Shown: positions 4,919 through 33,559 of the stretch, piece after piece
How the letters are laid out: each line of letters opens with the position of its first letter
Position numbering within the stretch: position 1 is the stretch's first letter
NCBI GenBank assembly: GCA_963717505.1
Contig: OY970342.1
Coordinates: 1,760,001-1,824,000 of the forward strand
DNA: 64,000 bases
Direction: 5' to 3'
DNA from: Candidatus Eiseniibacteriota bacterium
Lineage (GTDB): Bacteria > Eisenbacteria > RBG-16-71-46
Position numbers and translations under genes: made by a program
Notes under the pieces: model-generated
Told to the model about the DNA's origin: nothing
Seen by the model: only the letters and a program-made list of their open reading frames with translations
Database searches by the model: none

Positions 4919-7186
4919 ATGCTCGACCGTCCTTGCCCCCGACGCGCCATCTTCTTGACTGCGCTGGTCCCCGCCCTTCTGGCGCCGGGGATCGTCCGGG
5001 CCGCGGCTCCCCAGCCCGGCCCCCCGCTCACCATCGTCCGCTCGAATGGACCGATCACCCTGGACGGTGCTCTCACGGATCCCGGCTGGCAGGGCATTCC
5101 CGCCGTCACCCAATGGTTCGAGACTCGCGTCGGCGACAACGTCGAGCCCGCGGTCAAGAACGTCGGCTACCTGGCCTACGACGATCGCTACCTCTACGCG
5201 GCGTTCGAGTTCGAGGATCCCGATCCCAGGACGATTCGGGCTCCGATCGCCGACCACGACCAGCTCTCGGGACTGACCGACTACGGCGGCGTCATCGTCG
5301 ACGCCAGCAACGACGGCAAGACCGCGATTCTCTTTCTCGCGAATGCCAACGGTCTGACCTACGACGCCGTCAGCAACGACGCCTCGGGCGAGGACAGCTC
5401 GCCCGACTACTACTGGGAGTCGCGCGGCCGGATCACCGAGACCGGATGGAACCTCGAGATCCGGATTCCGTTCTCGTCCCTGCGCTACAGCAAGGATCCG
5501 TCGCCGACCTGGGGCATCATGCTCTACCGCAACTATCCGCGGGACCGGCACTATCAGTTCTTCACCGCCCGCCTGCCGCGTGACGTGAGCTGCTTCATCT
5601 GCAACTCGAGCAAGCTCACCGGGCTCAACGACCTGCCTCACGGATCGCACTTCGTCGTGGCGCCGTACGCGAGTGCTCAGCGCACGGACGAGCCGAGCGC
5701 CGGTCTCGGGTCCCCGCTCGAGGACGGTGACATCGACTCCGAGTACGGCGTCGACGCCAAGTGGAGCCCGTTCGCCAACACCGCGATCGACGGAACGATC
5801 AACCCGGACTTCTCGCAGATCGAGTCCGACGTCGCCCAGATCGCCGCCAACGAGCGGTTCGCGCTGTTCTATCCCGAGAAGCGACCCTTCTTCCTCGAGG
5901 GCATCGATCTGTTCTCGACCCCGCTCCAGGCGGTCTACACGCGTAGCGTGACCGCGCCGAAAGCCGGACTGCGTGCCACGGGTCGGCCCGGCACCACGTC
6001 GTTCACCGCGCTCGGCGTGCATGATCGTGGCGGCGGTCTCGTCATCCTTCCGGGCCCTGAGGGTTCGGGTGCGGCCCCGCAAGACTTCGAATCGGACGTC
6101 GGCATCTTCCGGTTGCGCCACGACCTCGGCCAATCGTTCGTGAGCCTGTTGGGCAACGGTCGAGTCATCGACGACGGTGGCGGCTACAATGCGGTCGTCG
6201 GTCCCGACTTCCAGTGGCGGCCACACCCGACCACTGCGATCACCGGCCAGGCGTTGTGGAGCAGCACCGAGACCCCCGATCGCACCGACCTCACGTCGGA
6301 TTGGGACGGCAGGACGCTCGAAGATCACGCCGCCCTGCTCCGCGGCTCGTACAGCACGTCGACCATCGACCTGTTCGTCCAGGGGCAGGACATCGGCGAT
6401 GACTTCCGTGCCGACCAAGGGTTCATGCCTCAGGTCGGATTCCGCGAAATCTACGGCGAAGCCGGCTTCACCATGCGCCCCGAGGACCGGTTCTACTCGC
6501 GCTTGCGCACCTTCACGTTCGGCTGGTACGACACGGACCTGTCGGGTGAGCTGCTGTCGCGCAGGGCATCGGTCGGCGCCGGAATGGACGCGCGCTGGAA
6601 CAGCTTCACGCGGGTCGAAGCCAACATCGAGGAGATCCGCGTCGGGGACGAGATCCTCTCGCGCGTTCGCCCCTACGTCTACGTTCAGACCAGCCCGGGT
6701 CGCGTGGTGAACAACATATCGATCGAGGCGTTCCTGGGGGAGGAGATCGACTTCGCCAACGCCCGCGAAGGCACCGGGACGACCCTCAACGGCAACCTCA
6801 CCGTGCGGCCGGGCAATCACCTCGATTTGCAGGCCAACGTCAGCACACGGTGGCTCAATGTCGACGACCCGGCGCTCGGCTCCGGACGCCTGTTCTTCGC
6901 GCAGGTCGAGCGCCTGCGGGCCGCGTGGTCGTTCAGCTCGCGCTCGTTCATTCGTCTGATCGGCCAGTACGTGCAGACAACTCGCGACCCGGCGCTGTAC
7001 ACGTTCGCGGTTTCCGAGAAAGATGCCGACTTCGGTTTTTCGGGGCTGTTCGCCTACAAGGTGAACTGGCAGACCGTGGTCTACCTCGGCTACGGCGACG
7101 CACAGACGTACAGCGGAACCAGCGATCAGCTGGAGGCCAGCGAGCGGCAGGCGTTCATGAAGCTGTCGTATGCACTCCAACGGTAG
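4919..7186 (+). CDS. CBM9-like plus DUF5916 domain protein (probable outer-membrane beta-barrel)
   Basis: Signal peptide, ITLDGALTDPGW, LEIRIPFSSLRY, TINPDFSQIESD, FYPEKRPFFLEG, C-terminal FMKLSY. Confidence 0.85.
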   Translation: MLDRPCPRRAIFLTALVPALLAPGIVRAAAPQPGPPLTIVRSNGPITLDGALTDPGWQGIPAVTQWFETRVGDNVEPAVKNVGYLAYDDRYLYAAFEFEDPDPRTIRAPIADHDQLSGLTDYGGVIVDASNDGKTAILFLANANGLTYDAVSNDASGEDSSPDYYWESRGRITETGWNLEIRIPFSSLRYSKDPSPTWGIMLYRNYPRDRHYQFFTARLPRDVSCFICNSSKLTGLNDLPHGSHFVVAPYASAQRTDEPSAGLGSPLEDGDIDSEYGVDAKWSPFANTAIDGTINPDFSQIESDVAQIAANERFALFYPEKRPFFLEGIDLFSTPLQAVYTRSVTAPKAGLRATGRPGTTSFTALGVHDRGGGLVILPGPEGSGAAPQDFESDVGIFRLRHDLGQSFVSLLGNGRVIDDGGGYNAVVGPDFQWRPHPTTAITGQALWSSTETPDRTDLTSDWDGRTLEDHAALLRGSYSTSTIDLFVQGQDIGDDFRADQGFMPQVGFREIYGEAGFTMRPEDRFYSRLRTFTFGWYDTDLSGELLSRRASVGAGMDARWNSFTRVEANIEEIRVGDEILSRVRPYVYVQTSPGRVVNNISIEAFLGEEIDFANAREGTGTTLNGNLTVRPGNHLDLQANVSTRWLNVDDPALGSGRLFFAQVERLRAAWSFSSRSFIRLIGQYVQTTRDPALYTFAVSEKDADFGFSGLFAYKVNWQTVVYLGYGDAQTYSGTSDQLEASERQAFMKLSYALQR

Positions 7187-17998: not shown

Positions 17999-20900
17999 CT
18001 ATTGAGAACCGGGTTCAGCCCGCTGCGCGCGGGCTTGCTCACGGCGGAGCTGCGCGTAACGCCAGTAGGTGTAGATCACGGGAATGATTTCGAGCGTCAG
18101 GAACGCCGAGGTGACGAGCCCGCCGACCATGGGGGCCGCCACTCGCTTCATGACGTCGGCGCCGGCGCCCTGCGACCAGAGCAACGGCACCAGACCGATC
18201 ATCATGGTGGCCACCGTCATCAGCTTGGGGCGGACTCGCTGCACCGAGCCCTCGAGTGTCGCCGCGATGATGTCGTCGAGACCGCGAATGCGACCCTCGG
18301 CGCGCCTGCGATGGTAGGCCGAATCGCAGTAGACGAGCATGACGACTCCGGTCTGAGCCGCGAGCCCGACCAGCGCGATGATCCCGACCCACACCGCGGT
18401 CGAAAGGTTGTAGCCGAGCAGCGCCAAGAGCCAGATGCTGCCGACCAGCGCGAACGGCACCGACGCCAGCACGATCAGGGCCGCTGCCAGGTTGCCGAAG
18501 CTGAAGTAGAGCAGCATCAGAACGAGGCCGATGGTGAGCGGCACCAGCACCGCCATGCGGCGCTGCATCTGCTCCAGCAGCTCGTACTGGCCGGTCCACT
18601 TGAGCGAAGTAGCCCGGTGGCAGGCGCAGCTCGTGCGCGACCCGCTGCTTGGCGTCGTCGACGTAGCCACCGATGTCGCGTCTCGCAGCGTCGATGTCGA
18701 CGTACACGTAGCCGGCGAGCAAACCGCCTTCGTCGCGGATCATGGGCGGGCCGGTCACGATGCGCAGGTCGGCGACCTGGCCGAGCGGCACGTGTCCGCC
18801 GCCGACCGGTTCGGCCGTCCGGCGCGGGCGTCGACGCCATGCCCGTGCCGCCGGACATCTCGCCGTCGACCGCGTCGGTCGAGTGGGACCAGCACGCGCT
18901 TCAGACTGCTCCAAGTCCTGACGCAGCTCGCGCGGGTAGCGCACGTTGATGGTGTAGCGGGCGCGCCCGTCGACCGCGACCTCGAGCGGCTGGCCGCCGA
19001 TCGCCGCCTCGATGACTTCCTGAACGTCGCCCAGGCGTCAGGCCATAGCGCGCCAGCGCCTCGCGATTCGGGACGATGTCGAGGTAGAAGCCGCCGGTGT
19101 TGCGGTCGGAGTAGACGCTGCGCGTGCCGGGCGCCCGCGACACGATGCGCTCGAGATCGATCCCGATCCGCTCGATCGTGTCCAGGCTGGCGCCGAAGAT
19201 CTTGATCCCGATCGGCGTGCGAATCCCGGTCGAGAGCATGTCGATGCGGGTCTTGATCGGCATGGTCCAGGCATTGGTCCAGCCCGGAAGTCGCACGCGC
19301 TCGGTTCAGCTCGGCGACCAGCTCGTCCCAGGTGATGCGGCGGCGGTCGGGCCAGAACGGCCGAAGCACGGCCGCGAGCCAGGGCGGCGCCCAAGCCGAG
19401 TACCAGCGCGGGGTGTCGACCATGCGCCACTGCTCGCGCGGCTTGAGCTGGACCACGGTCTCGACCATCGACAGCGGCGCCGGATCGGTCGGCGTCTCGG
19501 CGCGCCCGGCCTTGCCGAACACGCGGCTCGACCTCGGGGAACCGAACGAATCAGCCGGTCCTGGACCTGAAGGTGTCGCTTGACCTCCTCGATCGAGATG
19601 TTGGGCAAGGTGGTCGGCATGTAGAGGAGGTCGCCCTCGTTGAGCGGCGGCATGAACTCGTGGCCGAGTCGGAACGCCATCGGCACCGCCGACAGCACGG
19701 CGATCAGGCCGATCGCGATCGTGGTGCTGCGGGTTCTTGAGCGCCACCCAGGCGAACGGCCGGTAGAGGCGATCAGCGCGCGCGACACCGGGTGTTCGTC
19801 CTCGTGGCGGATGCGGCCGCGCACGAACAGACGTCATCAGCGCCGGCGCCAGCGTGATCGAGACCAGCGCCGCGAACGCCATGGCGAAGGTCTTGGTGTA
19901 CGCCAGCGGCTTGAACAGCCGCCCGGCCTGGCCGTTGAGCGCGAAGATCGGCAGGAACGCGACGGTGATGATCAGCAGCGAGAAGAAGATCGGCGGCCCG
20001 ACTTCCTTCGCGGCGTCGATCAGGACGCGCCGGCGGTCGGCGCCGGCGGGCGCCGTCTCCAGGTGCTTGTGCGCGTTCTCGACCAGCACGATCGCGGCGT
20101 CGACCATGGCGCCGATCGCGATCGCGATACCGCCCAGGCTCATGATGTTCGAATTGATCCCGAGCAGCGCCATCGGCACGAACGCCAGGCCGACCGCCAC
20201 CGGCAGCGACGATCACCGGCACCAGCGTGCTCCGGAAGTGGAGCAGGAAACACGAAGATCACGAGGCTGACGACGATCATCTCCTCGATCAGCGTGTGGC
20301 GCAGGGTGTCGATCGCGCGGTGGATCAGGCTCGAGCGGTCGTAGACGATCTCGGACCTGCGACGCCCGTCGGGGAAGCGAGGGCTCGAGCTCGCGCGAGC
20401 CGCTGCTTGCACGCGGTCGATGACCCGGAGCGCGTTCTCGCCGTAGCGCATGACCACGATGCCGCCCACCGCTTCGCCGTCGCCGTCCAGCTCGCCGAGT
20501 CGCCGCGGCGGATGTCGGGGCCGAAGGCGACGGTGCCGACGTCGGCGACGCGGATCGGCGTGCCGGTGCGCGCGGTCGGCGCCGAGCGCGACCTGACGCA
20601 GGTCGTCGAGGTCGTGGACGTAGCCGCGGCCGCGCACGAAGTACTCGCGGCCCGACATCTCGATCACGCGTCCGCCGACGTCCGCGTTGCTGCGCCGGAT
20701 CGCCGCCGGTGACGTCGGCGAGCGACAGTCCGTACGCGTGCAGCCGCGCCGGGATCGACCTCGACCTGGTACTGGCGCTCGATAGCCGCCGACCGACGCC
20801 ACCTCGGCGACGCCCGGCACGCTCGCGAGCGCGTAGCGCAGGTGGAAGTCCTGGAACGTGCGCAGGTCGGCGAGGTCGTGGCGCCCGCTGCGGTCCACGA

Positions 20901-21332
20901 GCGCGTACTGGAACACCCAGCCGACCGAAGTCGCGTCGGGCCCGAGCTGCGGGCTGACGCCCTCCGGCAAGCGCGCCGCGGATCGTGCTCAGGTACTCGA
21001 GCACGCGGCTGCGCGCCCAGTAGAGGTCGGTGCCTTCCTCGAAGATCACGTAGATGAAGCTCATGCCGAACATCGACTGGCCGCGCACCGCCTCGACCTG
21101 CGGCGCGGCGAGCAGCGACGAGACGATCGGATAGGTGATCTGGTCCTCGACCAGGTCGGGGCTCCGGCCCATCCACTCGGTGAACACGATCACCTGCGGA
21201 TCGCGAGAGATCCGGGATGGCGTCGAGCGGCACGCGCCGCATCGCGACCAGCGAGCCGAGCACCGCGAACGCGGTGAAGAGGAACACCAGCGCGCGATGG
21301 GTCGCGCAGTACTCGATGATCCGGCCGATCAC
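17999..21332 (-). pseudogene. cusA: CusA/SilA-type heavy-metal RND permease, multiply frameshifted (probably sequencing error)
   Basis: Collinear fragments in alternating frames: [88 protein letters not shown]. Confidence 0.9.
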
Positions 21333-22687
21333 GGGCGCTGTCCTTCGGTCTGCGACGGCGCGCTCATTCCCGCCATCGCGGCCTTGAGCCGGCTCTCGGA
21401 GTCGATCAGGAACGAGGCGCTCGGCAACCACCGTGTCGCCCGCCGCCAGCCCCTGGCAGGATCTCGGTGCGTTCGCCTTCGCGCGCACCAGTCCCGACGC
21501 GGCGCGGCTCGAAGCGGCCGCCGGCGCGCGCCAGGAACACGTAGCTCTTCGGTCGCCGGTGCGGATCACCGCCTCGCTCGGCACGGTCAGCGATGGCGCG
21601 GCGCGGCCCTGCACCTGGACGTCGCCCGTACATGCCCGGGCGCAATGCGCCATCCCGGTTGGCCAGTTCGATCCACGCCTGCGCGGTGCGCGTCTCGCGT
21701 CGACACCATCGGCTAGACGAATTCGATCTGGGATTCGAAACGGCGGCCAGGCAGCGCGTCTGAGGTAAACACCGCGCGGTCGCCCACGCGCACCCGTCCC
21801 AAGTCCATCTCGTAGAGGTCGGCGAGCACCCACACGCGGGACAGGTCTGCCACGGTCAGCAGCGGCATGTCGGCGGCGACGAACTGGCCTTCGGTGACGT
21901 GGCGCTCGAGCACCGTGCCGGTGACTGGCGACGGCAGCGTTAGTTGCGACACTGCGCGCTGCTCGCGCTCGAGCCGAGCGATCTCGGATTCGTGGACCCC
22001 TAGCAAGCGCAACCGCTCTCGACCGGCGACAAGTTCGCCGACGTTGTGTGATGCCTTGCGACGCGGCGCGGGTGGGCCGTGCCCCCTGGCCGAGTCGTCA
22101 ACCGCACCCAGCGAGATCAGGAACTCGAGCTCACTCTGATAGAGCTCGGGACTGTAGATCGTCAGCAGCGGCTGACCCTCGAGGACCGTAGCACCGGTCC
22201 GAGTCACGTTCATCGTCTGCACCCAGCCCGAAACCCGAAGCTGCACGCGCCTAACGCGCGACTCGTCCGCTGCGACGAACGCGACCAATGGTGTCTGCGA
22301 CCCGAGTGGCGTGCGTTCGACCACCGCGGTGCGCACGCCGATCAACTGCAAACGCTCGGGGCCGATCGCGACCACCGAAAGTCCCGGCACATTGCCGCCC
22401 GAGGCGGTGGAGTCGACGGTCGGCGCTGGCTCGAGATCCATGCCGCAGATCGGACACTCGCCCGGACGGTCGGACGTGTACGAAGGATGCATCGGGCAGT
22501 AATAAGCAGAGGCGACCGCGACGCCCGAGCGTCCGGCCGAATGCGACATCCACCACGCCGCGCCGCTGCCGAGCGCCAGAACCGCGAGGCCGACCAACAA
22601 CACGCGCCGGAACACGTTCATCGCTGCCGCCCCGGGCGGCGACGCCGACTCGGGAGATTCCGGACCCAGATCACGCGGTTCGTTCAC
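21329..22687 (-). pseudogene. cusB: CusB-like RND periplasmic adaptor with N-terminal heavy-metal-binding domain; 3' part frameshifted
   Basis: YYCPMHP...GECPICGMDL, IYSPEL, ADLSRVWV, LRPGM, VPSEAVI, FLIDSES; GTGA overlaps with tolC and cusA. Confidence 0.88.
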
Positions 22688-24015
22688 GGCTTCCTCCTCG
22701 ACGTCGCGTCCGGCAACGTCACGCCCAGCAGCTCCGGACGACCGGTGAGACTCAGCAGCTCGGCTTGCGCCATCGCCAACTCGCGACCCGCGTCGGCGAC
22801 TTCGAGCGCGCTGGTGTAGTGGGTGTGTGCGGCTTCGAGAGCTTCGGCGAGGTCGCTGCCGCCCGAGGAATAGGCGCTCCACGCCGCGGCCAACGAGCGT
22901 TCGCGCAACACCAGCACGGTGTCGGCAAGCAGCGTCAGCACGCGCTCACCGCCGCGCGCGCGCGCGTGCGCCGACTCGACCATCTCGAGCAGCTCTAGCT
23001 CCACTTGGGCGCGCTCGGATTCCTCGGCGTTTGCCATCGCCTCCATCGCGCGCGCTTCGGCCTGCTCGCGTCCGCCCGCGAACAGCGGCAGCGAGAACGC
23101 GACGCTCGCGCTGATCATGTTCTCCTGAACCACGCCGCCATGTGCGGCCGCAAACTCAGGATCGAGGTTGTCACGAAAGCCATACGACGCGCGCACGTCG
23201 AGATCAGGCCACTGCTCGCGCCGTGCGGCGCGGGCCGCCAGGTCGAAACGCTCTTGCGACGCGGCGCGCGCGCGTAGTCGCGGATGATCGGCGACCGCCT
23301 GCCGCCACGGTGCGAGCTCACCGACTTTCGCGTTCTCGGGTAGCGGATCGAGGGGACCAAACGCACGCCCTGTAGGGAAGCCCGACACCGTCGCCAGCCG
23401 TGCGCGCGCGGCGGACTCCATGGCTTCGAACTTCGCCATGTCTGCGGCGATCTCTGCTGCTTCTGCCTCAGCGGCTAGTGGCTCGCCCAGCCGACCGCGA
23501 CCCGCCTCGTAGCGCGCGCGCGCCGCCTCGGCCATCCGGCGCATCGCGCCCTGATGGCTGCGCGCCGCCGCGACCTTCTCGACCGCGGCCACCGCTTCGG
23601 CGTACGCGTTCCACGTCTGTCCCAGCACATCGCGGCGTGTCGCCGCCAGCTCTGCGGAGTCCGCGGCCGCCGCGCGCGCGCCCGACTGGCGCGCAAGGCC
23701 GTTGGCGCCAAAGATCGGAACACGCTGCATCACGCCGACCATCTTCTGCGTCATCGGATCCTGGTCGAAGCGCATCGTCGTCGGCAGGTCGACGATGCCG
23801 ACTTCGAGCACTGGCGCTTCCCACGCGCCGGCGCGTACCGCCTGTTCGCGCGACACGCCGATCCGCGCTTCGGCGACGCGCAGTCGCGGGCTGTTGGCGA
23901 GCGCGTCTGCTATGAAGTCCACGACCCCGGCCGCGCTCGCCGGGAATGGAATCAGCGCCAGCCACGCGGCGGCGGCGCCCAGCACCAACGCCCTGCTCGA
24001 TGTCGATGAATGCAC
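22684..24015 (-). CDS. TolC/CusC family outer-membrane efflux protein
   Basis: Signal peptide, ALANSPRL, QRVPIFG, HPRLRA, WPDLDV, FSLPLF; CAGGAG RBS before the GTG at 24015. Confidence 0.9.
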   Translation of the reverse strand: MHSSTSSRALVLGAAAAWLALIPFPASAAGVVDFIADALANSPRLRVAEARIGVSREQAVRAGAWEAPVLEVGIVDLPTTMRFDQDPMTQKMVGVMQRVPIFGANGLARQSGARAAAADSAELAATRRDVLGQTWNAYAEAVAAVEKVAAARSHQGAMRRMAEAARARYEAGRGRLGEPLAAEAEAAEIAADMAKFEAMESAARARLATVSGFPTGRAFGPLDPLPENAKVGELAPWRQAVADHPRLRARAASQERFDLAARAARREQWPDLDVRASYGFRDNLDPEFAAAHGGVVQENMISASVAFSLPLFAGGREQAEARAMEAMANAEESERAQVELELLEMVESAHARARGGERVLTLLADTVLVLRERSLAAAWSAYSSGGSDLAEALEAAHTHYTSALEVADAGRELAMAQAELLSLTGRPELLGVTLPDATSRRKP

Positions 24016-24021
24016 TGCACA

Positions 24022-24146
24022 CGCTCCTGTGCCTGAAGTTCCATGTAACGCAGGCTTCGCCAACGCGAAGTGCGACGGTGGAACGACGGATCCGAACGGA
24101 CGCCGTCCGGCCATCGGACGACGTCAGTGACCGAGGATCAGGAGCG
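24022..24146 (-). promoter_or_regulatory. Putative translational attenuator: anti-SD in the leader ORF end pairs with the tolC SD
   Basis: On the mRNA, CGCUCCUG (24146-24139) is exactly complementary to CAGGAGCG (24029-24022). Nested hairpins lie at 24038-24084 and 24104-24120. Confidence 0.6.
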
Positions 24147-24569
24147 AGGCGGGGCTCGGTCGGAGGAGGGACTGCCCGCGTGACGTGCGGTCGGTGGCGG
24201 ACTGTCGTCGAGCGTGAAGACTTCGGAAGGAAGGTCGGTGACCGAGGTGATGAGTGCGACGTCGATGATCGCAGGCATCGGCACCGAAGGTGCGAGCTTG
24301 TCGAGTGCGACCGCCGACACCGAGGTCAGCAACATGCAGCACGGGGATCCACCGGACGGACTCGGCGCTGGCGTGTCGTCGGCAACCGGATGACAGCAGG
24401 AGCCGCCGCTCTCCGCCGCGGGCGTACGCGCGTGACAGTCGACACCCGAGCGCTCGGAAGTCGGAGTCGCGAACGCGCTCACCAGGCAGTAGTTGCTGCC
24501 GAACAGGAACAGCGCGAGCGTCGCCGTGAGGGCCGTGCGCCACGAAGTATGGGTATGGGGCGTCAACAT
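24138..24569 (-). CDS. Cys/His-rich exported leader protein with C-terminal RAPP motif (DUF2946/CutF/CruR-like)
   Basis: 143 aa after an AAGGAG RBS; hydrophobic N-terminus; YC, DCH, SCCH and PCC motifs; ends SSDRAPPRS. Confidence 0.8.
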   Translation of the reverse strand: MLTPHTHTSWRTALTATLALFLFGSNYCLVSAFATPTSERSGVDCHARTPAAESGGSCCHPVADDTPAPSPSGGSPCCMLLTSVSAVALDKLAPSVPMPAIIDVALITSVTDLPSEVFTLDDSPPPTARHAGSPSSDRAPPRS

Positions 24570-24788
24570 GAGTGCTCCTTCGGCGATCAAAGGCTCGGAC
24601 TTGAGCGTGGTCGCGGTTCGCCGACCGGCCGGGATTGTGCCAGAACCGGCCGGTGGCCCCAACCAAGCCCAGCGACTGCAAGCCGAAACCAAGGCGGCCC
24701 TGGCGGTTCGCGCAGGCCAAACTGCCTGGCCCGTCGCACCGGCCGGCCCGTCTGCAACGTCCTCGACCCGGGGCGGGCTGAGTGGTCT

Positions 24789-24812
24789 ACAAACCCCTTG
24801 ACCGGGGTTTGT
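24789..24812. promoter_or_regulatory. Perfect inverted repeat, possible operator in the divergent promoter region
   Basis: ACAAACCCC-TTGACC-GGGGTTTGT. Confidence 0.4.
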
Positions 24813-24897
24813 CGGCAGGCGTCTCCTTATAGACCTGCGGGCCCTCGAGCCTGCCATGAATGTCCCTCGGGCATTAGACCCCTACCGGAGGTGATTC

Positions 24898-27800
24898 ATG
24901 CCGCCGCACGTGAACTCAATTCGTGCTTTTCGAACGCCTTCTCTTCTTCTGATTCCAAGTCTGATCCTGGCGGCAGTCGCTGTAGCCATGCCTGCCGGCG
25001 CCAGCGACTACAACGTCAAGGGTCGGTGGCAATGGGTGACGGAGAGCAAATGGGATGTGATGAATGGCTCGAACCTCGAGAAAGGCGGCGGCACGCACAT
25101 GGCGTTGTTACGGGGAGCCAGCGACGAGCACTGGGTGTTGCACTGGCATCTGGGCGAACAGGCACGGCTGTGGCGGCCGACCTCTGCGACGGACGTCGAT
25201 GGCGTGGCGGAAGACGTGCCGTTCCTATCCTTCGAGACCTTTTGCTCGGGGCACGCAACGCTGGGCAACGGCAAGTTGCTGGTCGTGGGCGGCACGATAG
25301 GTGTGACGACCGGTGAGCGGCGTTGCGTGACGTTTGACCCGACGGAATACACGCTAGCCAGCAAGGGCTGGACCCAGGTCAACTCGAGCGCGGCCGGGCA
25401 CTGGTACCCGACGGTGACGACCCTCGGGGACGGAAAGGTGTTGGCGGTGGCCGGGGCGCAGCACGAGAACATCGTTATGTTCGGCGGCGCCGTCGGGAGC
25501 AGCGACACGGTCACGAACGAAGCTGGATTCCTGAACATGGCAGAGGACGAGAACTGGAACCGGGATCCGACCACAAGCGGCAGGCCCGCGAAAAGACAGG
25601 GCCACAGCGCCGTCTACTGGAACGGCTTTGCCGTGGTGTTCGGCGGCGAAAGCATGAACAACGACATCCACAGGCTGTGGGGGCCGGATAAGGACCCAGG
25701 GCGTCGACGGCAGTGGGAAGCGGCCCTGACCCCCTCGAACCCTCCGTCTGCGCGTAGTTGGCACTCGGCGGTGGTGTTGGGTGACACGCTGTACGTCTTT
25801 GGAGGAAAGGACAACACCAGCGGCAGTGCGCTGAACGAGCTGTGGTGGATCAACCTCAAGAGCCCAAGTGCGTGGAACCAAGTGTCCGTACAGGGAACGT
25901 GGCCCGAGGCTCGATGGGACCATACGGCAGTGCTCGCCAAGGACGATCGAGCGCAGCCCGTGATGATCGTCTACGGTGGGCGAAAGAACGCGACCGAGCT
26001 TGCTGACGACGATGTCTGGGTGCTGACGATCCCCCGATATGTGAATCAGGGAGGGGGTGGCGCGGCCACGTCATTCGCTTGGCGTGGGCTAGAACTATCG
26101 TCGCCGGAGCCCGGGCCCCTGGAAGGACACAGTGCGGTGCTGGTGGCTCGCGGGTATCCGAACCCTCGTACCCATCGAATTCAAGTCTTCGGTGGGCGGA
26201 AAGCGAACGGAGACCTGACCAACTCACTTTGGGAGTTGAGGCAGGTCGAGGTTGCAGATTCTTCTGCCATTTGGACGTTCTTCGATCCGGGCCTCGGCGA
26301 CACGATCCCGCGGCGGATGCGGCACGCTGCAGTCTATGACAAGGAGTGGACCCGGATGATTGTCCACGGCGGCGACACGACACCGACTGCGGCTGGCGGC
26401 AACCTAGGAGATCTTTGGGAGCTGGACTTGGAGAACGCCGACTGGTCGCCGATTACGATCACGCCGACGGACTCGGTGCCCCTGGCGCGCTCCGGCCACA
26501 AGATGGTAATCGACTCTAGACCGATCCAGGTGCACGTGCCGGAGATCTACGATCCGGACAATGGCGCGTCCGGCACGTGGACGTCGAAGCCTGATGGGCC
26601 CAAGTACCAGCCCTACTACCCGTTCATGTTCACGCTGCCGGATGGCAACGTGTTCTTCGCTGGCAATGGGCCAGAGCACAGCGTTCCGCCGACGACCGAG
26701 AGTTACATCTACAACCCGGCCGCGCAGGAGTGGACAAACCAGAAGACCAGCGGGTCCCTGGGTGGCTCGGCGGTGTATTGGCCCGACCTCAACAAGGTGA
26801 TGAAGTGCGGTGGGGATGATGACGTTACGAATTCGGATGAGCAAGAAACCCGTGTGCTGACGATTGGATCGGGAAACTGGATCGAAGCTGCTGACATGCC
26901 GGAGTCGCGCACATTTCACAACCTTACACAGCTTCCGGATGGTCGTGTGCTCTTGTCCGGTGGAAAGACTCGGTCTTATGGAGGAGCATTCAACAATGTC
27001 GCCCGCATGTGGGATCCGACGCAGTCGGTTCCAGAGTGGGGCCCGTCGCTCGCGTCCGATCCTGCAAACCGCGGTTATCATTCCAGTGCGCTACTCTTGC
27101 CTGACGCGCGAATTCTGTGCGCCGGGGGACCAGGCGGCGCAGATAGGGAGGGTACGTGGCGAGCGACGATCTACTCACCGCCGTACCTCTACAAGAGCAA
27201 CGGAGTCGACTTGGCTGACCGCCCGACGATCACGAGTTCTCCAAACTACACGGTGCACTACAACGAACCGTTCTACGTGAATGTCGATGTCGATCCTGGG
27301 ACCACGCCGATTGACTCGATCAAGATCTTCTGCCTGATTCGTCCTGGGGCCCCCACCCACGGGTTCGACCAGAACCAAAGATACGTGTCGCTCGCGCCAT
27401 ACACCATGACGCACGGCATGCTCCGAACGGTGCTGACCGACAACCCCAACAAGGTTCCGCCCGGTGACTACCTGCTGTTCGCTGTACGAACTGGCGTGGC
27501 TGGTGTGCCCTCGGTGGCGAAATGGATAAAGATCCAAAATGAGGCCGGCGGGGTCGACAATACTGCACCAGCATCCGCGGGGCTGACCTACTCCGACGTC
27601 CAGTCCAATTCCGTAGTCCTCAAGTGGAATGCCCCCGGGGACGATGGCACGACAGGCACGGCGACCCAATACAGCTTGCGCAAGCGGCTGAGCACGGCCG
27701 GAGCGATCACCGACGCGAACTTCTTCGAGAACCCAGCCGTGGGCTTCAGCGGCCTCCCACGCCCTGCAGGGGCGCAGGAGCAAGCGTTGGCTGAGACTCT

Positions 27801-28977
27801 ATCGACCTGCACCACCTACTTCTTCGGGCTCAAGACGCGCGATGAGCGAACCAACGGCTGGTCAGCGGTGAGCGTCGTGACTGTCGGCACGAGCGGCTGT
27901 GGCGGTGGTGGAGGAGGCGAGCTTCCAGAATCCGCGCGTCCGGTCGGAGGCGGGCCGGTAGTAGCCCGAGAGCAGATTCTGCGGCTGGGGTCGTCGACCG
28001 GCGGTACAGCGGGCCTGACCATCGCGCATTCGGGGCCGACCGCGCAGGTGGACTCAGCGGCGATCCTACTGGCGCCGCGATCTGGGAACTCGATGACATT
28101 GGTGTCGGGAAACCAGCTGGAGGTTGTCGCGCGTCGTGAAGCCGAGCAGCTATTGCTGAATGGCACGGAGGTCAGCCTGTCGAACCTCGAGACGGCTCCG
28201 GGAGATCGTCTCATCGCCCGTTTCACCGACTCCGACGCGGTGCGAGGGATTGTGGTCGAGACTGGGGCGTCGGACTCGGACAACACGCCCGAGCGTCGTG
28301 GGTTCCGCGTACTCGTTCCCAATTCGCAAGGACAGTGGGTTCTGTCTACCGAGGTGGTGCCCGACTTCGACTGGGACGAGCTCGTGCTGCGGACGACAAC
28401 CGACAGTGTCTGCGTGGAGCTGGTCGGTGGGCACACGATCCTTGCCATCGATCGCCTGGTCGCGTCGGCCATGGAGCCATCCGTAGTCTCGATGGTTGGG
28501 ACTGAGGCGCGCCATTCCGAAGCGGGCAACCTCGCAGGCTTAGCCGAGTCAGTGGAACTGGCGGATGGGCAGTCTTTAGAAATCCACGCTGGCCTGCCTG
28601 CGACGGGCCAGCGCGCCGACGTGTTTCTCTACCTGAAGACGTCGGCGGCGAGCGGCCAGGGCCTGCGCAGTGAGCTTGATGCTGGTCGGAAGCTGCCGGC
28701 CGCATTCACACTGTCTCAGAACGAGCCCAACCCGTTCGGCGAAGGAACGCTCATCCGCTTCGCGGTGCCTATCAAGACCCAAGTAATGCTCGAGGTATTC
28801 GACATCCACGGCCGCAGGGTCAGGACTTTGAGTCAAAGCGAGTGGCCTGCTGGAGAACACACCCTTGAATGGAACGGACGAGACGAGCAGGGCCAGCGCG
28901 TCGCCCCCGGCGTCTATCTCTACCGCATGGAGGCGGGATCGTTCCGGGCCAGCCGCAAACTCGTCATGTCGCCTTGA
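24898..28977 (+). CDS. Secreted galactose/glyoxal oxidase-like copper radical oxidase with extra kelch propeller, Fn3 and FlgD-type C-terminal domain
   Basis: GGAGG RBS and signal peptide; FCSGH, WYPT, GYHSS and THGFDQNQR motifs; kelch repeats (R.GHS, FGG); LKWNAPGDDG; QNEPNPF...PGVYLYRM. Confidence 0.85.
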   Translation: MPPHVNSIRAFRTPSLLLIPSLILAAVAVAMPAGASDYNVKGRWQWVTESKWDVMNGSNLEKGGGTHMALLRGASDEHWVLHWHLGEQARLWRPTSATDVDGVAEDVPFLSFETFCSGHATLGNGKLLVVGGTIGVTTGERRCVTFDPTEYTLASKGWTQVNSSAAGHWYPTVTTLGDGKVLAVAGAQHENIVMFGGAVGSSDTVTNEAGFLNMAEDENWNRDPTTSGRPAKRQGHSAVYWNGFAVVFGGESMNNDIHRLWGPDKDPGRRRQWEAALTPSNPPSARSWHSAVVLGDTLYVFGGKDNTSGSALNELWWINLKSPSAWNQVSVQGTWPEARWDHTAVLAKDDRAQPVMIVYGGRKNATELADDDVWVLTIPRYVNQGGGGAATSFAWRGLELSSPEPGPLEGHSAVLVARGYPNPRTHRIQVFGGRKANGDLTNSLWELRQVEVADSSAIWTFFDPGLGDTIPRRMRHAAVYDKEWTRMIVHGGDTTPTAAGGNLGDLWELDLENADWSPITITPTDSVPLARSGHKMVIDSRPIQVHVPEIYDPDNGASGTWTSKPDGPKYQPYYPFMFTLPDGNVFFAGNGPEHSVPPTTESYIYNPAAQEWTNQKTSGSLGGSAVYWPDLNKVMKCGGDDDVTNSDEQETRVLTIGSGNWIEAADMPESRTFHNLTQLPDGRVLLSGGKTRSYGGAFNNVARMWDPTQSVPEWGPSLASDPANRGYHSSALLLPDARILCAGGPGGADREGTWRATIYSPPYLYKSNGVDLADRPTITSSPNYTVHYNEPFYVNVDVDPGTTPIDSIKIFCLIRPGAPTHGFDQNQRYVSLAPYTMTHGMLRTVLTDNPNKVPPGDYLLFAVRTGVAGVPSVAKWIKIQNEAGGVDNTAPASAGLTYSDVQSNSVVLKWNAPGDDGTTGTATQYSLRKRLSTAGAITDANFFENPAVGFSGLPRPAGAQEQALAETLSTCTTYFFGLKTRDERTNGWSAVSVVTVGTSGCGGGGGGELPESARPVGGGPVVAREQILRLGSSTGGTAGLTIAHSGPTAQVDSAAILLAPRSGNSMTLVSGNQLEVVARREAEQLLLNGTEVSLSNLETAPGDRLIARFTDSDAVRGIVVETGASDSDNTPERRGFRVLVPNSQGQWVLSTEVVPDFDWDELVLRTTTDSVCVELVGGHTILAIDRLVASAMEPSVVSMVGTEARHSEAGNLAGLAESVELADGQSLEIHAGLPATGQRADVFLYLKTSAASGQGLRSELDAGRKLPAAFTLSQNEPNPFGEGTLIRFAVPIKTQVMLEVFDIHGRRVRTLSQSEWPAGEHTLEWNGRDEQGQRVAPGVYLYRMEAGSFRASRKLVMSP

Positions 28978-31900
28978 ACTTGCCGATCGGGCGGCGCGGC
29001 CCCAACAAGCACAGTATACGACGCGCATCACTTGTGGCCGTGCTCTTTGTTGGGTGCCACTTGGTTACCGCACCTTCCGATGGATCGGCGCAGATCGTGG
29101 GTTCCATCATCGACATTTCCGGCGGCGTCAATCCGGAACTCGACCACTCACCCTCGATCGCGACAAGTGGTCGGAACGTGGTCGCGGTCTGGTATGACAA
29201 GGGTCGCGAGAACCTTCGTGGCTCGGTTTCTCGTGACGGCGGTGTCACATGGTCGGCTTCGATCATTGGCCCAGGCCGCCTGAGCCGGCCATCGACATGC
29301 ATCGACAGCAGACAGTCAGCATTCTGTGCGGTGGACGGAGTGGATGTTGGCGGATATACGATCCTGATTTTCAAGGCGTCGTTTCAGGATCCTGTCTGGC
29401 AATGGCAACGACAACAAAACGCCGTGCCTCCGATCTCGTTTGGTGCCGATGTGCCGGAAGGTGTACGCATCCTGAGCGACCACACAAACGATGTGCTCTA
29501 CCTGGTCTATACGCTCAGACCCGAGCGCTACCAGGGTCGCATCCAGTTCGTGCGCTCCACCAATGGAGGGGCGAGCTGGTCCCCTCCCGTTGAACTGAGC
29601 GGCAGCCAATGCAACACCGCGCAGTTCGCGCTCGGTCCCAATGGTGAGCTGTACGTGGTGTGGGAGGACTATGCTCAGGGAGCCATCGTCGGTCGAAAGT
29701 CCACGGATCAAGGCGTAAGCTTCAACGTTCCCTTTACGCTAGGGGCAATCCGCGACAACGTCAGCTTCGGGCCGCCGGGGTGGCAGGATGGTTCCCGCAG
29801 CGCGATGTTGGACAACGTCGAGTGCATGGACTTCCCGGCGTTCCTCGGGGTGGCAGTCGACACCGGCGCCGGGCCACGGCGCGGAGCGATCTACGGGGTA
29901 TGGAGCGAGTACGCCCTCGGCACGGTGGACCCCGACCCGATTCGCACCGTGGTTGAGACCGAGCCGAACGGCGATTTTGCCAGCGCCACGCCGATTCAGA
30001 TCGGTGACGATGTCAGTGGCGGGATGGTGGGAACTGACACCTCGGGCGACTGCGATGTGTTTACGTTCGGAGCCACGGCCGGTACGACGATTCAGATTAC
30101 CGGTGGAGCCACTTACTGTCACCCAGTAGGCGGGTGCACGAATCCGTCGTTCGGCATCTCGCTACTATGCGGAGATGATCCCTCGAACCTGACTCAGGTC
30201 GGGTGTGGTTCGCTCTACAACAGAACCTCGATCCCCCCGGTGGTCTACACGCTGCCGGCCACCGGACGCTACTATCTGGACCTATGCGGGGGCGTGGGGA
30301 CGTTCGTCTACGAACTCCAGTTCCGCGAGTACGTGATAACTCCCGGGCAGGGAGCTCTCGACCACCGCGATGTTGTACTAGTGCGTTCGACCGACGGCGG
30401 CGCGACGTGGTCGGACAAGGTGCGGGTCAACGATGATGCGCCGAGTTACGACAACGCGATGCCGGCGGTGGCGGTGGACGCCTCGGGCCGGGTGTACGTG
30501 GCGTGGTATGACCGGCGTGAGGATCCGGAGTGCGGAGCACAGGTGCACACACGTTGGACCTACTCTGAGGATGGCGGTGCGACATTCGCCTCTTCGCTGA
30601 GAGCGAGCGAACAGCCAAGCGGGGGTGGTCGTCACTACGACGGCCGGGGGCTGCAGAACACCTGGCAAGTGGGGGACCACCTCGCGCTACGTGCCGAAGG
30701 AGAGCGGGCTTACCTGCTGTGGACCCACATTCCGATTGGAGCTGCCTGTCCCCAATTGCCCTGCGACGGGGACATCTTCGGGTCGGTGATCGGCTTCGAG
30801 ACTGATCGGCCCGAGATCCTGGACGTGGAGCCGGATGTTGGGGCTCCCGGAATCGGCGTCGAGATCCGCGGGCGCAATCTGTCGGACGCGACGGCGGTTC
30901 TGTTTCGAGACCAGTCGGTTTCCTTCACGGTGGTCTCGGACTCGCTGATCACCACCGAGGTTCCGGTCGACGGGCGCACCGGGTATGTGACGGTGGTGAA
31001 CCCCCCGCTGGCCGGCGTGAGTGCGGGGCTGTTCTACGTGACGCCGCGGATTGGCTCGGTGCTGCCGTCGCGGGGGCTGGTGGGACAAGCAGTCAAGCTC
31101 GTCGGGGCCAACTTCACCGGTGCAAGCCAGGTGCGCTTCAATGGCGTGCCGTCATCGTTCACCGTGGTCTCTGACACCTTGATCACGACCATGGTGCCGG
31201 GGGGAGCAAACGAGGGTCCGATCGAGGTCGTGGCCCCAGGTGGAACCGTCGCGTCGGACCCGTTCCTGATCGGGCACCTCAACAGCGGGATTAACCTGGC
31301 GTGGGACGACTGCGGAGCCAACGGGGTGACACTGAAGCGGTTTGCGTGCGACACGAATCTGGGGCCGATGTTCACGCTGGTCGGCTCGTTCACACCGCCC
31401 GTGGGAGTCGATCGGTTCACTGGGATCACCGCCGATCTCCGGGTGATCAACCCCTCCGGCCAGCCGCTGCCGGACTGGTGGCGGGTCTCGACCGGCGGAT
31501 GCCGTCCTGACGCGCTAGGGACGAGCTATGACTTCACTGCTGGTCCCACCACGTGCCGTGACTTCTACCAGGGGCCTCTGAGCAACAGCATTTCATACGA
31601 GCCCGCGTACGGAGGGCCCGCACATGCCCGCCTACTGATGAGCGCGACAATCCCTACCGAGGGTGTCGGGCCGCTCGATGCGGGGACCGAGTACTACGCA
31701 TTCAAGGTCCATGTCGCGCGGGTACAGAGCATCGGCAAGGAGAGCTGTGCGGGCTGTAGCTCGACGATGCGCCTCGAGCTTCGATCAATCCAATTGCACC
31801 AGCCGGTCGAGAGCGGTTTCGCCCCAGTGCTGACCACGCCGCTGATTCGGCAAGTCGCCTACTGGCAGAACTCTGGGCCCGACATTGTGAGCTTCCTGCC

Positions 31901-33257
31901 CCGACAGGCACCAGCTGGCGCGCAGGTGGGTCTTCGTGGCCTGGGTTTCACTGGCGCAACCATGGTGACGTTGAGCGGTATCAACGCACCTTTCACTGTA
32001 GTCAGCGACAGCCTAATCCTAGCCAGCTTGCCCACCGGCGCGACCAGCGGGCCCATCACGGTGATCAACCCTTACGGCTCGGACACGAGTGACGAACCTC
32101 TTACCATCGGTCCGCGTCTGGGGAGCATCAACCTCTCGTGGAGCGACTGCGGCACCTACGGAGATGCGCTGCATCGGTTCGCGTGCGACAGCAACGCCGG
32201 TACCCCGTTTGACCTAGTCGCCTCGTTCCGGCCGCCGCCGGAAGTTGCACGGGCCACCGGTCTCACGGCGGTCCTAACGATAGCGAATCCCAACGGCGTG
32301 CTGCCCGACTGGTGGAAACATGGTGCCGGCGGGTGTCGTGTGGCGTTCGCAAGCAGCTTTGACTTTACGTCCGGCCCATTCTCCTGCGTTGACTTGTTTC
32401 AGGGCATCGCGGTCGGCGGTGGGTTGGGCTACCTGGCCGGCGGTTCCGACCCCTCGCGTGCTCGTGTCGTCGTCCAGGCCGGGATTCCTGAAGAGCTGGC
32501 GGGGTCGCTAGACCCGAATGTTGAGTACTACGCGGCGATCGTGCGGGTACGGCGAAGCAACACCGTGGGTACGGAAGCTTGTGCTGGCTGCGAGACGCCC
32601 GTATGCATCGGGCTCGAGTCGGTGACAATCTCCCAGCCGCCCGAGTTCGGCTACGACCCCATGATCGACATGCCGGCCGACAACACAGCGGTGGCCTGGC
32701 AGAACTTGGATCCGGCGTGCTTGGCGATCGTGCCGGTGCACGTGGTGGTGGTGGTGGCCGAGGCCGACGTCGACCGCATCCGGATCGTCTGGGAACTGCC
32801 GGGGGCTGAGGGTGCAACCCTCTATCGCCGCGAGATCGATGGCGAGTGGCGTCGTCTGGAGCGGCTGGTTCCTGATGGCGCGCACCGAATCGAGTACGTG
32901 GATCACGACGTGCGTGCGGGCGTCACATATGGCTACCGGCTCCAACTCGATGGTGAAGAGGTCTTCGTTGGCGAGACATCGCTGGCGGTGCCCAACCGGG
33001 CGTGGACGCTCGCGCTCGGCGGGCTGAGTTGGAGCAGCGGTAGCGTACGAGGGACCATTACGCTGCCTGCAGCCGGCCCCGCGGCGCTCGAGATCTTCGA
33101 CCTGGTCGGGCGTCGCCGCGCGACCGAGCGGCTCGACGGGCTCGACGCCGGCGAACACCGTGTGGATGTGCGCACGGCGCTCCGCCCGGGGGTTTACTTC
33201 GGGCGCCTCACACAGGGGCGTGCAGCGGTCACACGCCGGTTCGTCGTGGTGGAATAA
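28974..33257 (+). CDS. Large secreted protein: BNR/sialidase-like propeller, PPC-like insert, 3 IPT/TIG domains, 2 Cys-rich domains, C-terminal sorting-type domain
   Basis: Asp-boxes SRDGGVTW, STNGGASW, STDGGATW, SEDGGATF; ETEPNG; FTVVSDSLI-type repeats; PGVYF tail; TTG start overlaps the upstream TGA. Confidence 0.82.
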   Translation: MNLPIGRRGPNKHSIRRASLVAVLFVGCHLVTAPSDGSAQIVGSIIDISGGVNPELDHSPSIATSGRNVVAVWYDKGRENLRGSVSRDGGVTWSASIIGPGRLSRPSTCIDSRQSAFCAVDGVDVGGYTILIFKASFQDPVWQWQRQQNAVPPISFGADVPEGVRILSDHTNDVLYLVYTLRPERYQGRIQFVRSTNGGASWSPPVELSGSQCNTAQFALGPNGELYVVWEDYAQGAIVGRKSTDQGVSFNVPFTLGAIRDNVSFGPPGWQDGSRSAMLDNVECMDFPAFLGVAVDTGAGPRRGAIYGVWSEYALGTVDPDPIRTVVETEPNGDFASATPIQIGDDVSGGMVGTDTSGDCDVFTFGATAGTTIQITGGATYCHPVGGCTNPSFGISLLCGDDPSNLTQVGCGSLYNRTSIPPVVYTLPATGRYYLDLCGGVGTFVYELQFREYVITPGQGALDHRDVVLVRSTDGGATWSDKVRVNDDAPSYDNAMPAVAVDASGRVYVAWYDRREDPECGAQVHTRWTYSEDGGATFASSLRASEQPSGGGRHYDGRGLQNTWQVGDHLALRAEGERAYLLWTHIPIGAACPQLPCDGDIFGSVIGFETDRPEILDVEPDVGAPGIGVEIRGRNLSDATAVLFRDQSVSFTVVSDSLITTEVPVDGRTGYVTVVNPPLAGVSAGLFYVTPRIGSVLPSRGLVGQAVKLVGANFTGASQVRFNGVPSSFTVVSDTLITTMVPGGANEGPIEVVAPGGTVASDPFLIGHLNSGINLAWDDCGANGVTLKRFACDTNLGPMFTLVGSFTPPVGVDRFTGITADLRVINPSGQPLPDWWRVSTGGCRPDALGTSYDFTAGPTTCRDFYQGPLSNSISYEPAYGGPAHARLLMSATIPTEGVGPLDAGTEYYAFKVHVARVQSIGKESCAGCSSTMRLELRSIQLHQPVESGFAPVLTTPLIRQVAYWQNSGPDIVSFLPRQAPAGAQVGLRGLGFTGATMVTLSGINAPFTVVSDSLILASLPTGATSGPITVINPYGSDTSDEPLTIGPRLGSINLSWSDCGTYGDALHRFACDSNAGTPFDLVASFRPPPEVARATGLTAVLTIANPNGVLPDWWKHGAGGCRVAFASSFDFTSGPFSCVDLFQGIAVGGGLGYLAGGSDPSRARVVVQAGIPEELAGSLDPNVEYYAAIVRVRRSNTVGTEACAGCETPVCIGLESVTISQPPEFGYDPMIDMPADNTAVAWQNLDPACLAIVPVHVVVVVAEADVDRIRIVWELPGAEGATLYRREIDGEWRRLERLVPDGAHRIEYVDHDVRAGVTYGYRLQLDGEEVFVGETSLAVPNRAWTLALGGLSWSSGSVRGTITLPAAGPAALEIFDLVGRRRATERLDGLDAGEHRVDVRTALRPGVYFGRLTQGRAAVTRRFVVVE

Positions 33258-33259
33258 TC

Positions 33260-33559
33260 ATGAACTCCGGCGCGTAGCCGGGCGATTTCTCGCTTGGGCA
33301 GAACGAGCCGAACCCGTTCGGAGAGGGGACGCTCATTCGCTTTACAGTGCCACTCAAGACTCAAGTGAAACTCGAGGTGTTCGACATCCATGGACGCAAG
33401 ATCAGAACTCTCGCGCGAAGCGAGTGGCCTGCCGGCGAACACACCGTCGAGTGGAGTGGGCGCGACGAGCAGGGGCAGCGCGTGAGCCCGGGTGTCTACA
33501 TGTATCGGATGGAGGCCGGATCATTTACCTCCAGCCGCAAACTGGTGATGTCGCCATGA
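33260..33559 (+). pseudogene. Stand-alone FlgD-type domain duplicated from the 3' end of the oxidase gene, with an in-frame TAG at codon 6
   Basis: ATG AAC TCC GGC GCG TAG CCG..., then QNEPNPFGEGTLIRF...SRKLVMSP, closely matching 28696-28977. Confidence 0.75.

Follow-up and report, generated by a model that had tools for sequence, protein, structure and literature searches.

What is the function of a small, cysteine-rich open reading frame (ORF) that ends in the motif RAPP and directly precedes a predicted Cus-type efflux operon? The question is raised by a locus from a Candidatus Eiseniibacteriota bacterium (assembly GCA_963717505.1, contig OY970342.1), of which we analysed positions 1,760,001 to 1,824,000, a stretch of 64,000 nucleotides referred to below as the window. 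Pumps of the Cus type are, as a textbook matter, controlled transcriptionally by two-component systems such as CusRS. No regulator gene adjoins the operon in the window. We consider it likely (probability about 0.6) that the 143-residue product of the ORF, here called the leader, is an arrest peptide of the SecM/CutF kind which unmasks the pump operon's Shine-Dalgarno (SD) sequence, probably under copper or silver. A nascent-chain sensing leader that opens the ribosome binding site (RBS) of a pump would be a different and faster layer of control. The anatomy of the leader, its conservation throughout a protein family, the complementarity and co-variation at the RNA level, and the Cus-type identity of the pump are observed and are presented in turn.

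The leader ORF and its peptide

The leader ORF starts with ATG at 24569 and stops with TGA at 24140-24138 (coordinates refer to the window unless a locus is named). Its features are as follows.

24138-24569, minus strand: leader ORF (P0001), 143 codons plus stop, Cys-rich and RAPP-terminal
24575-24580, minus strand: Shine-Dalgarno sequence AAGGAG of the leader ORF, 5 nt 5' of its ATG, read from the sequence
24471-24551, minus strand: N-terminal hydrophobic helix, residues 7-33 (AlphaFold2 helix and column conservation), a presumed signal peptide or signal anchor
24336-24488, minus strand: putative Cys/His sensor region with C28 (24488-24486), C45-H46 (24437-24432), C58-C59-H60 (24398-24390), and C77-C78 (24341-24336)
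24147-24158, minus strand: codons for R138, A139, P140, and P141, at which arrest is presumed with the P-site holding P140 and the A-site holding P141, a placing taken from the toeprinting of CruR as described in PMC12992588

The N-terminus is basic and then hydrophobic, the clusters YC28, DC45H (DCH), SC58C59H (SCCH), and PC77C78 (PCC) follow, and the C-terminus reads SSDRAPPRS. A preliminary description of the locus, made from the sequence alone, had noted a 143-residue ORF with Cys/His clusters and the ending DRAPPRS at a distance of 122 nt from a tolC gene, and had proposed CC and CH rather than CxxC ligands. The first statement is borne out by our reading of the ORF, whose stop is separated from the tolC-like gene by 122 nt; as to the second, the peptide has neither CxxC nor CxxxC, its conserved cysteines being C28, C45, C58 (C59), and C77-C78.

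AlphaFold2, supplied with an alignment of 69 sequences, predicts a single helix (residues 7-33) and low-confidence coil for the remainder (mean pLDDT 65.7). This predicted structure fits a tethered sensor or spacer peptide more than a folded protein. V-S-A precedes F33 at the end of the hydrophobic helix, which we presume to be a signal peptide or a signal anchor. The segment from residue 7 to 33 is unusually conserved (F21, G24, N26, and C28; consensus FLxGSNYCLVxA), and the invariant G24 and C28 together with the near-invariant N26 are unusual for a cleaved signal. Cys28 lies in what resembles the c-region of a signal peptide and could serve as a ligand, or the segment might be an anchor that is not cleaved.

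A family of RAPP-terminal peptides

A word-indexed search returned five metagenomic relatives, which are 36-80% identical to the window peptide upon alignment and all end in RAPP plus two residues. The RAPPRS end of the window leader is also found in three independent metagenomic proteins. When 1.84 billion representatives were searched with a profile, 74 cluster representatives were retrieved at E<=1e-3 (25 of these at E<=1e-10), nearly all of them 130-155 residues long and alignable up to the last residue. Exactly two residues separate the motif R(A/G/S)PP from the stop in 70 of 79 proteins; 3-7 residues do so in seven, and the motif is absent from two. RAPPLA is the commonest C-terminus (31 proteins), while RAPPRS, as in the window, is found in five.

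Mean column identity in the 69-sequence alignment is 31%. G24, C28, C77, C78, R138, P140, and P141 are invariant (69/69), and conservation is at least 90% for F21, N26, C45, C58, P125, and A139 (C45 and C58 each 68/69; A139 66/69). The distance from CC to RAPP is 57-63 residues in all 69 sequences (mode 59-61), and the segment in between is unconserved in sequence, Pro-rich, and predicted to be coil. If the proposal is correct, this fixed distance of about 60 residues would be a ruler for the point along the path from ribosome to translocon at which the metal is read.

A six-frame profile search covering 206 genomes of the phylum, which defines the range given here, detected the family in 55; of the 88 genomes that make up the window's own taxonomic family, 50 have it. 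Locus scans of genome contigs and of metagenomes yielded 3 and 7 loci, respectively. One locus with a family member is titled Candidatus Eisenbacteria. NCBI labels the members "hypothetical protein", and Pfam and NCBIfam scans of the leader and its 69 relatives assigned no family. The leader belongs to a real, as yet unnamed protein family, and the proposal would give a function to "hypothetical proteins" of an uncultivated phylum.

Predicted pairing of the leader tail with the Shine-Dalgarno region

The gene that follows the leader starts with GTG at 24015 (24015-24013), with AGGAG at 24028-24024, 8 nt upstream. The RNA elements between the RAPP codons and this start are listed here.

24139-24146, minus strand: anti-SD CGCUCCUG (R142, S143, and the first two stop bases), within the arm 24157-24139 of a 16-bp helix
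24009-24029, minus strand: 3' arm of the closing helix, from the SD region CAGGAGCG (core AGGAG, 24028-24024) through the GTG at 24015-24013
24096-24128, minus strand: intergenic hairpin 1, 13 bp (RNAfold)
24038-24084, minus strand: intergenic hairpin 2, nested, 6 + 10 bp (RNAfold)

The tail sequence CGCTCCTG (24146-24139, codons of R142, S143, and stop) is the exact reverse complement of CAGGAGCG (24029-24022). The exact complementarity over 8 nt between the codons after RAPP and the SD region of tolC had been claimed before, and it holds; the leader tail is the sole 8-nt complement to the 20-nt SD region within the 301 nt upstream. When the minus strand of 24000-24170 was folded with RNAfold, the tail paired with the SD region (minimum free energy (MFE) -70.6 kcal/mol, z = -2.88, with one of 200 shuffles as good). 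The closing helix comprises 16 bp, with interruptions, between 24157-24139 and 24029-24009, and it also covers the GTG start. The two hairpins which had been proposed to bring the arms together were recovered at 24128-24096 and 24084-24038, in agreement with the preliminary description. For the duplex between tail and SD window, -20.6 kcal/mol was computed, a value reached by none of 1090 other windows of the locus.

We modelled a ribosome with Pro140 in the P-site as a mask over 24167-24137 in which pairing is forbidden. The mean probability of AGGAG being unpaired rises from 0.00 in the free mRNA to 0.59 under this mask, as expected from the earlier suggestion that a ribosome footprint would free the SD; with a mask at the leader stop codon it is 0.53. 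In silico, the downstream SD is predicted to be sequestered in a structure that a stalled ribosome disrupts.

Predicted pairing across related loci

Of 33 non-redundant loci, 19 have an MFE fold in which at least three of four SD-core bases pair within nt 0-27, numbered from the R codon (16 of them within nt 0-22), compared to 8.6 of 33 expected from composition-preserving shuffles of the tail; because the genomes are related, such locus counts overstate independence. Cognate duplexes of tail and SD have a mean of -17.05 kcal/mol versus -15.4 kcal/mol for swapped ones, and the cognate value is reached by 9 of 20,000 permutations. The SD of the window is bound better by its own tail than by any other (0/32).

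The way in which the complementarity is attained differs between classes of C-termini. Most relatives have the tail CGC GCN CCU CC(U/G) CUC GCC stop, in which the codons for Pro-Pro-Leu-Ala serve as anti-SD. In loci encoding RAPPLA, the tail CUCCUCUCGC is the exact complement of the SD region GCGAGAGGAG. RAPPSA loci have CUCCUUC matched by GAAGGAG, and RAPPLS loci have CUCUCUCC matched by GGGAGG...GAGAGAG. In loci with the Pro codons CCC or CCG, UUCCUC or UCCCAC just past the stop takes the role of the anti-SD. RNAalifold, applied to 12 RAPPLA loci, found a sole consensus helix, that of the tail with the SD (10 pairs). The 8-nt sequence GAGAGGAG is invariant in these 12 loci, and the other intergenic columns are little conserved.

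The rare codon CCU is used for the first proline of RAPP in 18 of 29 loci and for the second in 10 of 29, compared to 49 of 522 other leader prolines and 18 of 575 in the next gene. On the farther-reaching reading given below, rare CCU codons and tail residues (LA, RS, LS, and others) would be under selection as RNA. With arrest codons and anti-SD overlapping in this way, synonymous changes should break regulation while the peptide is unchanged.

The downstream operon

The operon on the minus strand comprises three genes.

22684-24015, minus strand: outer-membrane factor gene (TolC/CusC-like), 443 residues, intact; PF02321 (OEP) at 4.3e-34, TIGR01844 at 2.3e-27 (below the cut-off of that model)
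21359-22621, minus strand: CusB-like membrane-fusion protein gene with HMBD domain; PF16576 (HlyD_D23) at 2.2e-50, PF19335 at 7.9e-15, and tblastn
18060-21332, minus strand: CusA-type resistance-nodulation-division (RND) pump gene; TIGR00914 over all three frames, with at least six frame switches and three Met-bearing motifs present

These matches to an outer-membrane factor, a membrane-fusion protein with HMBD, and a CusA-type pump agree with the previous assignment as a Cus-type RND efflux operon. The Met motifs of the window pump are located in different frames. The gene order is leader, OEP, membrane-fusion protein with HMBD and CusB-type domains, and RND pump in locus L003, an Eisenbacteria relative with intact frames. 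The best solved relative of the L003 pump is E. coli CusA (4.6e-257), versus ZneA at 2e-114. It keeps the methionines in LLYMP, PLSMVET, and RIDMLST, which correspond to chain positions 580, 630, and 679 of 3t51_A. We take these to be M573, M623, and M672 of native CusA, the methionine triad for Cu(I)/Ag(I). Judged from sequence, the downstream operon is a CusCBA-type Cu(I)/Ag(I) RND efflux system.

By tblastn with the window protein, 27 of 33 locus rows have a TolC-like gene directly 3' of the leader, seven of the matches being weak (26-32% identity). Of the six rows without such a match, four have at most 327 nt of downstream sequence. In L033 (2124-2480, plus strand), the family member is followed by a gene for a cupredoxin-domain protein (PF13473, 4.1e-16), and in L029 (728-1306, minus strand) by one for a Met/Gly-rich secreted protein of 193 residues without a Pfam family. 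These two genes are further copper-linked outputs of the leader family. An ORF starting MLKDPVCGMQV is located after the Met/Gly-rich gene of L029. Genes for sec, yidC, or dsb components were not detected downstream of the leader in the 33 locus rows.

Relationship to DUF2946 and to known arrest peptides

The copper leaders CutF and CruR belong to DUF2946 (PF11162), a family to which the preliminary description had likened the leader and against which a profile search had been suggested. Membership was rejected by profile search and by profile-profile comparison. PF11162 does not match the leader in a Pfam scan even at E<=10, and among the 69 family members the best value is E=0.59 in a single one, with none above the gathering score. 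A six-frame search with PF11162 found nothing at the leader locus and nothing over the cut-off in the whole genome, and in none of the 206 genomes of the phylum was the cut-off exceeded. NCBI applies the name DUF2946 to one Eisenbacteria group which has CxxC, ends in RAPP, and is sub-threshold for PF11162 (22 bits versus a cut-off of 23.7). Comparison of the leader family (69 sequences) with this set by hhalign gave a probability of 6% and aligned only 13 C-terminal columns (the RAPP tail); the set is narrow, with nine sequences of one group that is itself below threshold. In the ESM Atlas, only unnamed look-alike clusters were found, one of which (score 0.94) has DUF2946 on 23% of its members, a lead only. 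The leader does share traits with DUF2946: RAPP near the stop at the C-terminus, a location at the head of a copper-related operon, and an intergenic region of considerable length. The spacing from Cys to RAPP is 57-63 residues versus 45 for DUF2946, in which the CXXC-RAPP spacing is conserved within 1-2 at about 45 residues (PMC9426467). The likeness to CruR and CutF is one of architecture, without homology detectable in the sequences.

Nascent-chain copper sensing by RAPP or PPP arrest is already known from CruR (2022) and CutF (2023, 2025). CutF (Rhodobacter capsulatus, cutFOG) resembles the leader as a small exported Cys-bearing peptide with a C-terminal proline stall motif, export being presumed and stalling putative for the leader. 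By analogy, the proposal shares with CutF a stem-loop over the next RBS that is opened by a stalled ribosome, and a copper-detoxifying output which is switched on by the metal. Stalling of CutF under copper melts the stem-loop over the cutO RBS, and the proposed cause is that copper-bound cysteines cannot form the disulfides that help to pull the chain out (10.1101/2025.02.05.636593). CutF differs in belonging to DUF2946, having CXXXC and an EF-P-dependent PPP stall, and controlling a multicopper oxidase, as described in the same source. The leader, in contrast, has no DUF2946 match, carries CC/CH motifs and RAPP plus two residues, precedes a tripartite RND pump, and has an anti-SD made of arrest and tail codons.

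CruR (Bp2923, Bordetella pertussis) has RAPP near the C-terminus, a conserved Cys-RAPP spacing, and an N-terminal export signal (presumed for the leader), and it heads a copper-related operon in which a long intergenic region follows it (PMC9426467). In vitro, it is arrested at RAPP while the P-site and the A-site hold the two prolines, and arrest at RAPP withstands EF-P (PMC12992588). Unlike in the leader, CXXC is 45 residues from RAPP, three residues follow RAPP, and Rho-dependent termination is involved (PMC9426467); copper relieves the stall (OFF), and the target is a TonB-dependent importer. In the leader family the spacing is 57-63, two residues follow RAPP, a helix is predicted to sequester the SD, and an efflux pump is the target. 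SecM, ApdA, and ApdP share with the proposal a C-terminal arrest of the RAPP/RAGP type, an N-terminal localisation signal, and SD unmasking (PMC7897499, PMC10951233); they regulate Sec/YidC components and lack conserved cysteines, whereas the leader has five invariant or near-invariant ones and precedes a metal pump.

The 2025 survey of Fujiwara et al. (EMBO J, PMC12992588) describes small secretory RAPP/RGPP proteins which precede metal-homeostasis genes. Like the leader, these are small, secreted or membrane-bound, and RAPP-terminal, some with conserved Cys/His. Its main text names TonB receptors, YcnI, PCu(A)C, PepSY, DsbA/thioredoxin, and cases from S. lividans; "efflux" and "TolC" have no occurrence in the main text, and its figures or supplements may list the family. 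In the texts consulted on RAPP and copper leaders, as distinct from figures and supplements, neither an RND efflux target nor this CC/CH family nor an anti-SD of arrest and tail codons is described.

Two further RAPP-like tails were seen at locus L043 (G148:C87:4951-8139). On its minus strand, an ORF of 86 residues, named DUF2946 by NCBI, begins with MQLGV, has CAVC, and ends in SRAPPLG; on its plus strand, a second small ORF has CFCAGLH and ends in TRAPPPA. Cys peptides with a RAPP terminus are thus of several kinds in this phylum.

Proposed mechanism

What we infer is that the ribosome stalls, that the peptide is exported, that a metal is the cue, and which way the output responds. In the free mRNA, the tail codons would form the 5' arm of a long-range helix hiding the SD and start of the tolC/cusC-like gene. 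While the nascent leader is being made and presumably exported, the ribosome would stall on RAPP, its P-site occupied by Pro140 and its A-site by Pro141. It would then cover the anti-SD, which in the window lies 1-8 nt past the A-site codon and in RAPPLA loci would fall within the P-site, the A-site, and the next two codons. The SD and start would become free and the outer-membrane factor would be translated; CusB and CusA would probably be switched on too, via coupling or mRNA stabilisation.

We propose that C28, C45, C58, and CC77-78 sense a thiophilic metal, Cu(I) or Ag(I), on the nascent chain. At a distance of at least 62 residues from the peptidyl-transferase centre, these cysteines would be outside the ribosome. 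In analogy to CutF, the arrest would last longer with metal bound, for example through a block of the disulfide formation or folding that would otherwise pull the chain out, so that the pump would be made when metal is present. The site of sensing may be the periplasm, as for CutF, or the cytoplasm, which is the proposal made for CruR.

We suggest tentatively, and at slightly below even odds, that a family unrelated in sequence to DUF2946 independently joined a Cys-rich exported sensor to RAPP arrest, and that it may serve the CusCBA pumps of Eisenbacteria as their dedicated metal switch, one that dispenses with a protein regulator and in which arrest and tail codons double as anti-SD. If true, stall site and riboswitch-like helix would be one element, nascent-chain metal sensing would extend from oxidases and importers to tripartite efflux pumps, and at least two unrelated families of Cys-bearing sensors would have taken up the RAPP arrest module.

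Counter-evidence and alternative explanations

Several observations weigh against the proposed arrest mechanism. The SD-tail pairing is absent from the MFE fold in 14 of the 33 loci, so that the co-variation between SD and anti-SD which had been anticipated for homologous loci stands with respect to the excess over expectation and the preference of cognate over swapped pairs, and fails in these 14. In four of these 14 loci (L010, L025, L029, and L036), the SD is paired instead with a site located 21-25 nt 5' of the R codon, which is beyond the footprint of a single stalled ribosome. Duplexes are weak (-8 to -10 kcal/mol) in the sub-clade with RAPPRI ends (L003 and L036-L038; intergenic regions of 216-237 nt), which may use CCUCC or CCUUC right past the stop as anti-SD or may have another mechanism. 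The 10 pairs of the RNAalifold helix are all invariant or broken, none being compensatory; because the helix is invariant within the largest class, the evidence for covariation rests on a between-class comparison of related genomes. A match of 4-5 bp is cheap, as CCUCC arises from Pro-Pro codons and GGAG is any SD, and the CCU enrichment could serve slow decoding instead of pairing. A finishing ribosome briefly opens the helix, so plain translational coupling would fit too. The direction of the metal effect is borrowed from CutF by analogy, and copper acts oppositely on CruR. Finally, cusB and cusA are frame-broken in this assembly. Each computational check put forward in the preliminary description turned out favourably or close to it, and the interpretation given there is partly supported as a whole: the verdict is limited because the pairing is missing in those 14 loci, because the leader is no member of DUF2946, and because stalling, secretion coupling, and metal sensing with its direction are matters that we infer.

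Attenuation of the CruR type would have the stalled ribosome keep Rho off the intergenic RNA, with termination before the tolC-like gene upon release of the stall and only a secondary role for the SD helix. This is the mechanism demonstrated for CruR, the only genetically dissected RAPP/Cys leader (PMC9426467); the intergenic regions are long (109-383 nt), and a scan of 23900-24950 detected no intrinsic terminator pattern. Nevertheless, we hold it to be unlikely as the principal mechanism: the C/G ratio is 0.90-1.30 over 29 intergenic regions (1.03 in the window), these regions are predicted to be highly structured without a clear C-rich, G-poor unstructured stretch, and the complementarity of tail and SD, the cognate preference, and the CCU bias would be left unexplained. 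The Rho route could well act together with SD unmasking.

More doubtful still is the idea that the leader is a periplasmic metal-binding accessory of the pump with a CusF-like chaperone role, its RAPP end and helix providing nothing but translational coupling. Such a role would suit a small protein that is rich in Cys and His, starts with a hydrophobic helix, and is encoded first in a Cus-type operon, and any terminating ribosome would open the helix (probability of the SD core being unpaired, 0.53, as computed above). Yet the AlphaFold2 model shows no folded domain besides the N-terminal helix, RAPP is strongly avoided in proteomes except for arrest (PMC12992588), and the invariance of RAPP at a fixed distance from the stop and from CC would find no explanation. 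We give a similarly small chance to an arrest peptide that monitors a non-metal cue, either Sec translocation or periplasmic disulfide/redox capacity, and adjusts the synthesis of the outer-membrane factor. Protein localisation is what the classic RAPP peptides ApdA and ApdP monitor, genes for DsbA and thioredoxin are likewise preceded by RAPP/RGPP leaders (PMC12992588), and the conserved ligands are all cysteines. Against this, every downstream context seen has a link to copper (Cus-type pump, HMBD adaptor, cupredoxin, and Met-rich protein), and the 33 locus rows are devoid of downstream sec, yidC, and dsb. We rate these three explanations lower than an SD-unmasking arrest peptide; none of them explains the cognate complementarity of tail and SD together with the copper-linked contexts.

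State of the assembly and neighbouring genes

In the window, the frames of the leader and the tolC-like gene are intact and those of cusB and cusA are broken. Translation of cusB shows, from about 21715 to 21420, a stop, an out-of-frame stretch, and a return to the frame. Fragmentation affects four of the genome's five RND loci, and the assembly, a single contig of 4.16 Mb, is 86.7% complete. Contigs from related organisms (mostly less than 95% alike) are without single bases at 21203, 19829, and 19303, near frame switches. These contigs leave 24048-24495 uncovered and so have no bearing on the leader; the two DNA runs from which they come contain 5-7% of the sampled words. On account of the fragmented RND loci, the completeness figure, and these single-base differences, we consider the breaks in cusA and cusB to be probably assembly indels rather than specific decay. 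Indel errors are suggested throughout the assembly, and other ORF calls in the window may suffer from them.

Scans of 23900-24950 for sigma-70 promoters and intrinsic terminators gave 0 sites, where the sigma-70 pattern may not be the promoter type of the phylum, and Rfam has no match at E<=1 in 23800-24900. The window locus is flanked by pfk downstream of the operon and by a divergent Kelch/galactose-oxidase-like gene upstream. The latter (24898-28977, plus strand) is an ORF of 1359 residues with Kelch/galactose-oxidase-like repeats, a GO-like E-set, and a C-terminal FlgD-Ig. Two large ORFs with BNR/TIG repeats (28869-33257 and 33160-36492) come after it; all three probably encode secreted or surface proteins. 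In L003, an NnrS-family gene (4498-5766, minus strand) is divergent and located upstream of the leader.

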